Position numbers and translations under genes: made by a program | The notes under the pieces: model-generated | The model's input: only the letters and a program-made list of their open reading frames with translations | The model's database searches: none | What the model was told of the DNA's origin: nothing | NCBI RefSeq assembly: GCF_045037415.1 | Contig: NZ_CP173438.1 | Source of the DNA: Escherichia coli | GTDB lineage: Bacteria > Pseudomonadota > Gammaproteobacteria > Enterobacterales > Enterobacteriaceae | DNA: 64,000 nt | Direction: 5' to 3' (one strand) | In this document: piece after piece, positions 10,935 through 11,186 of the stretch | Layout of the letters: each line of letters begins with the position of its first letter | How positions within the stretch are numbered: position 1 is the first letter of the stretch

Positions 10935-11186
10935 CTTATGACCTTTGTCAAATATTAAGCCCAAAAAGACCTTACGCAGCTCCGGGAGCTTCGTTATATC
11001 GCGGATTAAAGAACCTGAAACAGTCAGACTGTATCTTGGATTTTACAAACTCTTATTCGGGGATTTTAGCCCCATGACGATTTACGCAGTGAGCTGGCCT
11101 CTTTCTACGTGCAGGTATTAGCGCATTCTGGCTTCCCTGAATTCTTTTACGAGGATCACTCATTCCGTGTCTGACTGCTTCAGGGT
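10935..11186 (-). ncRNA. Candidate guide (bridge/seek) RNA locus in the 252-bp 3' non-coding end of IS110-family copy 1
   Basis: Inferred only from position (long non-coding region downstream of an IS1111-type transposase); RNA not folded or verified. Confidence 0.3.

Follow-up and report, generated by a model that had tools for sequence, protein, structure and literature searches.

A predicted bridge/seek RNA in the 3′ non-coding end of the IS1111-group insertion sequence ISEc45 of Escherichia coli

The element and its surroundings

The DNA considered here, referred to throughout as the window, is a stretch of 64,000 nucleotides from Escherichia coli (NCBI RefSeq assembly GCF_045037415.1, contig NZ_CP173438.1). 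Between positions 10935 and 12381 it carries an insertion sequence that PGAP names ‘IS110-like element ISEc45’, and this interrupts the tnpC gene of a host element of the IS66 family, to which PGAP gives the name ISEc43. The parts of ISEc45 that are needed for what follows are these:

10935-12381, minus strand: ISEc45 copy 1, 1447 bp, inside the tnpC gene of ISEc43 (IS66 family); limits set by the empty site (L029) and by junction comparison, with a 1-nt A/T ambiguity at both ends
12321-12381, minus strand: left end, 61 bp, comprising the core AG, ATGAT (5 nt), the subterminal repeat ATGACCTTT (12366-12374), a leader and an RBS
11187-12320, minus strand: gene for the DEDD transposase/recombinase, 377 aa (open reading frame list, Pfam, NCBIfam)
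10935-11186, minus strand: 3′ non-coding region (the “tail”), 252 bp, with the proposed bridge RNA followed by right-end DNA functions
10935-10951, minus strand: right end, comprising TTGACA (10946-10951), the subterminal repeat AAAGGTCAT (10938-10946) and the 3-nt extension AAG

The host tnpC gene begins at 9509 and is broken after ...GGAAAGAAAAAT; the insertion junction given in a preliminary description of this DNA is fixed by the uninterrupted ISEc43 tnpC of E. coli TW10573 (L029), which reads ...GGAAAGAAAAATTACGTGTTCTTCGG... across the same point. Written in the orientation of the IS, and using ^ here and below to mark a boundary, the element is ...GAACACGT ^ AGATGAT-ATGACCTTT ... TTGACA-AAGGTCAT-AAG ^ AATTTTTCTTTCC..., and comparison with the empty site of TW10573 shows no target duplication beyond the 1-nt A/T ambiguity. 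The preliminary description had put some 60 bp upstream of the transposase gene and 252 bp of non-coding DNA downstream, for which measurement gives 61 bp (12321-12381) and 252 bp (10935-11186), and it had reported 9-bp subterminal inverted repeats, which are indeed present (ATGACCTTT/AAAGGTCAT; read on the plus strand, ATGACCTTT is at 10938-10946 and AAAGGTCAT at 12366-12374). Beyond these repeats the terminal extensions measure 7 nt on the left and 3 nt on the right (AGATGAT- ... -AAG), while in relatives of ISEc45 the subterminal repeats are from 7 to at least 10 bp long and occupy the same position. The hexamer TTGACA, which resembles a -35 element, is kept in most relatives for which a right end could be located, and at the junction of a circularised ISEc45 it would form a good -35 sequence at a spacing of 17 bp from a poor -10 sequence, TATGAC.

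The assignment of the transposase to the IS110 family made in the preliminary description is upheld by a score of 279 bits (cutoff 140) against the NCBIfam model NF033542, ‘IS110 family RNA-guided transposase’, and by Pfam matches to PF01548 (2.3e-15; the N-terminal DEDD/RuvC-like domain) and PF02371 (7.9e-23; the C-terminal domain). The translation also contains GLVPGEYSSG, corresponding to GL-P----SG, an instance of the C-terminal-domain motif defined for IS110 transposases as G(L)-P----S/T-G (PMC11187229). At 377 aa the protein lies outside the range of 330-350 aa given for the IS1111 group by Siddiquee et al., and its sequence resembles the IS1533-like branch, which ISfinder and Durrant et al. 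(2024) place within IS1111; because the length is off-range, membership of the group has to be argued from the other features and from the published classification. Those other features are the long downstream non-coding region, the short leader and the subterminal repeats, on which the preliminary description had relied in calling the layout IS1111-like, together with the terminal extensions and the lack of a target duplication. Judged by its sequence in these several respects, ISEc45 is a member of the IS1111 group of the IS110 family. It is a common element, present in full-length or near-full-length form in 584 of 5426 complete E. coli genomes. The surroundings of the insertion (8065-8541 on the minus strand and 8694-9478 on the plus strand) are a patchwork of IS fragments, with an IS3-like integrase-core reading frame on the minus strand lying just upstream of the tnpA- and tnpB-like reading frames of ISEc43.

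A conserved structured RNA in the tail

The preliminary description had suggested that the tail encodes a guide RNA of the bridge or seek type. The structural part of the evidence bearing on this concerns the following features, all read on the same strand as the transposase gene:

11014-11184, minus strand: whole structured unit of the candidate bridge/seek RNA, about 171 nt (minimum free energy fold; 16-bp outer stem pairing 11169-11184 with 11014-11029)
11031-11170, minus strand: conserved RNA core, comprising the target-binding arm and the donor-binding region (covariance model R1, 101.9 bits, E = 9e-24)
11112-11139, minus strand: hairpin P3, between the two target guides; its sequence and length vary in relatives
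11059-11073, minus strand: hairpin P5 (GGGG/CCCC), in the donor-binding region; GCGG/CCGC in a distant clade

The transposase-sense strand of the tail has a minimum free energy (MFE) of -72.5 kcal/mol (z = -2.9, as against z = -1.6 for the antisense strand), and the predicted fold consists of the 16-bp outer stem, a target arm made up of the helices S1 and P2 and the hairpin P3, and P5 placed in a multiloop. All four of the segments that are proposed below as guides are unpaired in this fold, which was calculated without constraints.

For comparison, 28 loci encoding relatives of the transposase (43-99% identity) were collected from one-genome-per-species contigs, while a scan of viral contigs for further relatives yielded two partial loci only. 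The RNA comparison itself draws on about 20 relatives, with transposases 43-72% identical, and because these come from a few clades the number of independent covariation events is small. Most intact relatives have, 3′ of the gene, the same series of motifs: CCUC, a loop, a hairpin, a second loop and GAGG, then GGGG/CCCC between two further loops. Of the helices, alignment with MAFFT and RNAalifold found just S1, P2 and P5, placing the variable P3 and the loops in the wrong register, and because of this the alignment underlying R1 was built from a structure given by hand, followed by re-alignment with the covariance model (CM). In an alignment of 17 sequences, 84% of the cells in S1, P2 and P5 are paired, compared with 27-58% when the partners are slid past one another, and there are 38 compensatory cells, compared with 15.2 +/- 2.9 in column shuffles, none of 500 of which reached 38. 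A further helix, P4 (CGACG/CGUCG; 67% of cells paired), was considered and rejected for ISEc45, as it holds in the clade of the L005 type and fails in ISEc45, L002 and L003. The pair closing P5 is a conserved U.G in 15 of the 17 sequences, and this, together with the G.T wobbles in the guide pairings described below, fits only the transposase-sense strand. Each of the 17 elements has a predicted outer stem at the matching position, formed from unrelated sequences. Fifteen of these stems clearly exceed their shuffled controls (z from -2.8 to -9.3), those of L007 and L017 being weak (-0.6 and -0.8).

The preliminary description had proposed a covariance-model search as a check on structure. On this point the helices do covary and R1, which was built from relatives, does match, but a scan of positions 8-16 kb of the window against Rfam 15 at E <= 10 found no matching family for the tail RNA; a match to mir-970 at 12468-12532 (E = 6.4) was dismissed as due to chance. 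When R1 was run over both strands of 169 kb of sequence it matched only on the sense strand directly downstream of a transposase gene, with two matches of 101.9 bits each in the window (11031-11170, and 12578-12717 in the second copy of ISEc45 discussed in the final sections), and it detects elements that had been held out from its construction, namely L016 (72 bits), L025 (64), L017 (52) and L032 (100). R1 covers, then, a diverged sub-family that is absent from Rfam. The RNA was found in every intact relative, and there it lies inside the inverted repeats.

These observations bear directly on one quite different account of the tail, which is that it is simply a 3′ untranslated region, a terminator or a gene for a small protein, any complementarity to the target or the IS ends having arisen by chance. 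There are two listed open reading frames that would suit the last of these (10945-11121, plus strand, 58 aa; 11053-11241, minus strand, 62 aa), and chance matches of 5-7 nt are certainly common. However, a scan of ISEc45 for promoters and terminators found no internal promoter and no terminator-like site, what is conserved is a pattern of helices and loops, the insertions and deletions in P3 are incompatible with a conserved reading frame, and the permutation tests of the next section speak against chance; we regard such an explanation as extremely improbable.

Proposed guide segments and their covariation with target and ends

Four segments of the fold are proposed as guides. The definitions used are those of Durrant et al. 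(PMC11208160), under which a left guide is one that pairs with the bottom strand and a right guide one that pairs with the top strand, the core being included:

11140-11146, minus strand: right target guide AAGAAUU (tail positions 44-50), on the 5′ side of the target-binding loop; abuts P3; can pair with AATTTTT, which opens the right flank
11105-11111, minus strand: left target guide CACGUAG (tail positions 79-85), after P3; reads as the left flank CACGT followed by the core AG
11076-11081, minus strand: putative right donor guide AUCGUC, before P5; can pair with left-end positions 2-7, GATGAT, with one G.T wobble
11050-11056, minus strand: left donor guide AUAAGAG, after P5; reads as the right IS end ATAAG followed by the core AG

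The left target guide is the flank sequence itself, and would thus pair with the bottom strand. Short matches of this kind mean little in isolation: bare k-mer matching of the tail to target and donor gives many 5-6-mers and is uninterpretable without the fold and the relatives. For the comparison across relatives, the IS ends were located from the subterminal repeats alone, independently of the RNA, using a search anchored on ATG...CAT followed by manual curation; automatic detection of the longest inverted repeat returned spurious repeats in GC-rich loci.

For the left target guide, in seven distinct classes of guide, 28 of 35 positions match the left flank (for instance CACGU/CACGT in ISEc45, CAGGU/GAGGT in L009 and CAGCC/CAGCC in L006 and L008), and of the 5040 possible permutations of guides and flanks just one, the true assignment, does as well. 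The left donor guide falls into five classes (AAG, CAG, GAG, AUC and AUU), and here all 25 positions match the right end, a result equalled by 1 of 120 permutations. The right target guide has, in relatives that target IS66 elements, 7-10 contiguous base pairs starting from the first base of the flank, the exceptions being L003 (7 bp, starting from base 2) and L019 (only 3 bp), and in L016 and L027, whose targets differ, it has 6 bp. The putative right donor guide is the weakest of the four assignments: its cognate runs average 4.7 bp as against 3.7 bp for non-cognate ones, and a common register holds in about half of the relatives and is inconsistent in L008, L010 and L011. With that reservation as to the right donor guide, single-stranded loops do show the complementarity to the tnpC insertion site and to the IS termini that the preliminary description had expected, and they covary with both across the relatives.

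In most relatives an AG dinucleotide at the crossover is common to target and donor. The core of the ISEc43 target is AA; the UU in the right target guide is able to pair with this as well as with AG. The bases that follow AG in the two left guides show a further regularity, in that the one after the left target guide (11104) tracks position 3 of the left end, being mostly A and being U where the end has T, while the one after the left donor guide (11049) tracks position 3 of the right flank (U/T, C/C, A/A); taking both together, they match in 32 of 34 cases (alignment A2). By analogy with IS621 it is possible that these bases resemble its handshake guides, but they sit on the left guides.

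At this stage two other readings of a conserved and structured tail have to be weighed. It could act purely as DNA, containing internal transposase-binding or end-recognition sites, so that the matches to the ends would be no more than DNA repeats. The left donor guide, AUAAGAG, is after all literally a second copy of the right-end sequence, and the extreme right end does bear DNA signals in the form of the subterminal repeat and the conserved TTGACA. Set against this are compensatory changes that preserve helices, including strand-specific G.U pairs, outer stems that keep their structure and not their sequence, and two segments that match and covary with the target, which lies outside the element altogether; a purely DNA-level role is, on this showing, very unlikely. 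Alternatively, an RNA could be made but be a passenger that spreads by way of the IS, or a regulator of the transposase, and play no part in guiding recombination. A precedent is Ssr9, which is encoded downstream of the transposase gene of the IS110-family element ISPpu9 and is dispensable for transposition (PMC12288879). Such an RNA would, however, give no reason why its loops should covary with flanks and ends, nor does it sit easily with the presence of the RNA in every intact relative, within the inverted repeats; we consider it highly improbable. A guide RNA encoded in the tail, as suggested in the preliminary description, is the interpretation that the covariation, the R1 matches and the complementarity between loops and DNA all favour.

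Target preference

Natural insertion sites of ISEc45 give some indication of how stringently the proposed target guides would be read. Four distinct sites are occupied by elements with an identical RNA, and a fifth, which lies in ISEc22, by an element whose RNA differs at a single base next to the right target guide. The five sites all fit xx(C/A/G/T)(G/A)(T/A)^A(A/G)^T(T/C)(T/C)T(T/C), and one of them lies outside IS66. The other four are one shared point of four different IS66-family tnpC genes, with the sequences CACGT^AA^TTTTTC, CATGT^AA^TTCTTTT, CAGGT^AG^TTTTTG and CATAA^AG^TTTTTA. The site outside IS66 is in E. coli strain 219 (L038, 2511-3957), where an ISEc45 that is 100% identical is inserted in a DUF4942 gene at TTCGT^AG^TCCTCTTT; in terms of its sequence, with a partial match to the guides, this is a natural off-target insertion. 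Only two to four of the five flank bases match the left target guide at some natural sites, and the five-site comparison leads to the view that the right half and the core are the most constant, mismatches being tolerated in the left half.

The same point of IS66-family genes recurs in more distant relatives. In five of these (from Nitrosomonas, Trabulsiella, Sphingomonadales, Rhodobacteraceae and Acidobacteria) the flank translates as ...DNNxxExxxRxxxxG(R/K/W)KN and ends at position 346 of the IS66 profile NF033517, which is also the profile position of the insertion point in the window (10934/10935); the loci used for target position were L002, L003, L005, L006, L009 and L022 together with the window. 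A further relative, from Limnoglobus (Planctomycetota), has a matching flank motif by translation only. To judge from these flanks, the ISEc45 clade appears to specialise in a single, conserved codon position within IS66 transposase genes, and if so its speciality is to inactivate those genes at that position.

An element of the IS1111 group has been found within IS66 in one other case: on a Shigella dysenteriae plasmid (L039, 1400-2900), ISEc11 sits in an IS66-family element, with tnpA on one side and the transposase gene of ISSfl3 on the other.

Comparison with characterised systems

The most closely comparable systems are those of ISEc11, ISKpn4, ISPst6 and ISPa11, for which Siddiquee et al. 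(2024, PMC11187229) reported co-purification of the transposase with an RNA derived from the tail downstream, a seekRNA that also proved essential for circle formation and transposition; for an ISEc11 with its tail deleted, complementation in trans by the RNA alone was carried out. In the IS1111 type of seekRNA the match to the top strand lies 5′ of the match to the bottom strand, with a hairpin between the two (PMC11187229). ISEc45 resembles these elements in that its predicted RNA comes from non-coding DNA lying 3′ of a DEDD transposase gene, in its subterminal repeats with a 7-nt left and 3-nt right extension and no target duplication, and in the internal arrangement of the RNA, where the top-strand guide again precedes the bottom-strand guide, a hairpin separates them and their overlap falls at the insertion point. 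The tail of ISEc11 shows the same succession of guide, hairpin and guide (CAGUAUUUU ... GUGAAAAUA), and the target arm of about 73 nt and whole unit of about 171 nt predicted for ISEc45 are comparable in size with the 82-nt and 154-nt RNAs of ISEc11.

There are nevertheless clear differences. The ISEc45 transposase is about 35% identical to TnpEc11, and that only over the C-terminal 128 aa; R1 does not detect the ISEc11 seekRNA (its best score in that tail is 0.8 bits), and so gives no sequence-level sign of homology to a proven RNA. The target of ISEc45 is IS66 tnpC, whereas that of the ISEc11 group system is GTGAAAATACTG. The seekRNAs of ISEc11 and its companions have been shown experimentally; the RNA of ISEc45 is predicted from comparison of sequences.

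With the bridge RNA of IS621 (PMC11208160; Hiraizumi et al. 2024, PMC11208158) the predicted RNA shares bispecificity, having one part that would bind target and one that would bind donor, as well as left guides for the bottom strand and right guides for the top strand, and a core dinucleotide that is common to target and donor and is contained within the guides. The differences are that in ISEc45 the RNA is at the right end, after the gene (in IS621 it is at the left end); that the order of the guides within a loop is reversed; that the core is AG, with AA tolerated in the target, in place of CT; that the donor guides are in a multiloop and not in a simple internal loop; and that the possible handshake-like positions follow the left guides, where IS621 has them on its right guides. 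A right-end location is the usual one for the group: of IS1111-group elements, 93% have a bridge RNA predicted by Durrant et al. (2024, PMC11208160), mostly at the right end, and a multiloop frequently contains the donor guides.

Their Supplementary Table 5 has a row for ISEc45 itself, reading ‘Detected Bridge RNA End: RE; IS1111’ (PMC11208160), which agrees with the present analysis as to element and end, such rows giving only the end at which a model matched. Because ISEc45 is listed there, the finding is already in the literature as a prediction, and the RNA described here is an expected instance of the published bridge/seek-RNA mechanism. In the literature and supplements searched we found no assignment of guides, target or structure for ISEc45, and the publications found to mention ISEc45 have nothing on its RNA or target; what is added here is an explicit map of the guides, together with a fold, for an element common in E. 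coli, its IS66-specific target and the end-anchored duplications described below. As regards the target, a parallel is offered by ISEc21, an element of the IS110 type (PMC11187229), which is likewise an RNA-guided IS aimed at a conserved coding motif in the transposase gene of another IS family, namely the DDE codons of IS3-family transposase genes (PMC11187229). It belongs, however, to a different subgroup, in which the RNA lies upstream of the gene and the guide order is reversed, and both the IS family and the motif that it targets are different.

Proposed mechanism

Taking all of this together, we put the probability that the 252-bp tail of ISEc45 encodes a functional bridge/seek RNA at about 0.88. 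The basis for this in the present analysis is the anatomy of the element, the conserved structure of the RNA, and guides that are complementary to the DNA and covary with it; production of the RNA, its binding by the transposase and its requirement would follow by analogy with the experiments on ISEc11, ISKpn4, ISPa11 and IS621.

In the scheme we propose, the bridge RNA would be read on the transposase-sense strand and would probably be processed from the transposase transcript. It would fold into a unit of about 171 nt held together by the long closing stem, presenting two guide regions, a target-binding internal loop and a donor-binding region in a multiloop, and once bound to the DEDD recombinase it would bring together the junction of the circularised IS and the target. 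The preferred target would be the sequence that encodes G(R/K)KN^(W/Y)xFF in IS66-family TnpC, with strand exchange expected at the A(G/A) core.

Tandem duplication and end-anchored rearrangements

ISEc45 is present twice in the window, the arrangement being as follows:

10934-14028, no strand assigned: exact tandem duplication of 2 x 1547 bp (the IS plus 100 bp of tnpC flank), 0 mismatches
12482-13928, minus strand: ISEc45 copy 2, identical to copy 1; RNA core at 12578-12717, whole unit at 12561-12731

The preliminary description had noted that the tail region is repeated in a second copy, and it does recur at 12482-12733 with 0 mismatches; what the second copy does not represent is an independent insertion, a possibility that was rejected on the grounds that the 100-bp flank is duplicated along with the IS in an exact tandem array. 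At 12481/12482 the duplication has a new junction, which in IS orientation is ...GGTCATAAG^AGATACGC...; here the right end of the IS is joined to AGATACGC, which resembles the left end AGATGATA. In our collection of 5426 complete E. coli genomes this junction was absent from every one.

Three further rearrangements share a feature, in that each has a junction lying exactly at an IS end, followed by AG. In E. coli GN02270 (L030, 3151-3342) the last 96 bp of ISEc45 at its right end occur twice in tandem, with the junction ...GGTCATAAG^AGTCTGAC... (...ATAAG^AGTCTGAC), so that a right end is joined to an internal AG site; a BLAST search with this junction is uninformative, as it joins two halves that are present in any normal copy. 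In Belnapia moabensis (L013), downstream of about position 1750, there is again a tandem duplication of the right end, ...GGACATCAG^AGCGGGCGATG... (...ATCAG^AGCGGGCG), where the junction site is internal and resembles the normal right flank of that clade, AGCGG(C/G)C. In E. coli TUM13773 (L033) a 9-bp tandem duplication, AGAACATGT-AGAACATGT, stands directly before the left end of ISEc45, and the boundary of the duplication is exactly the IS junction.

All four duplications could be produced in the same way, by an unequal exchange between sister chromosomes in which the junction of right end and flank would recombine with an upstream pseudo-site resembling a junction of left flank and left end. 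As far as its sequence goes, the duplication in the window may be such a recombinase-made unequal exchange at a pseudo-site, or it may be an artefact of assembly. If the end-anchored duplications are indeed the work of the recombinase, they would be natural off-target rearrangements by a bridge recombinase, and as such would bear on the specificity of bridge recombinases as tools for genome editing.

A wider proposal combining several of these elements can be put forward tentatively, and taken as a whole we would sooner doubt it than rely on it: that RNAs of the ISEc45 type may form a distinct and widespread sub-family of IS1111 bridge RNAs, fixed on IS66 position 346 (G[R/K]KN^) in Gamma-, Beta- and Alphaproteobacteria, Planctomycetota and Acidobacteria, with an AG core and with “mirror-image” handshake positions beside the left guides, and that the duplication in the window is a natural by-product of the RNA-guided recombinase linking the right IS end with AG-containing pseudo-sites.

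Incomplete relatives

Some of the loci collected are not intact. In two from Novosphingobium (L026 and L028, 2588-2692) the RNA ends after the target-binding arm, giving a partial CM match of 42.6 bits, and beyond the arm comes a long perfect palindrome; the two elements are truncated and have kept the target arm only. At a contig end in a metagenome-assembled genome labelled Collinsella sp. (L001) there is a transposase 99% identical to that of ISEc45, but in place of the tail another coding sequence takes over right after the transposase stop codon; this locus probably represents either E. coli contamination of an actinobacterial bin or a recent transfer.
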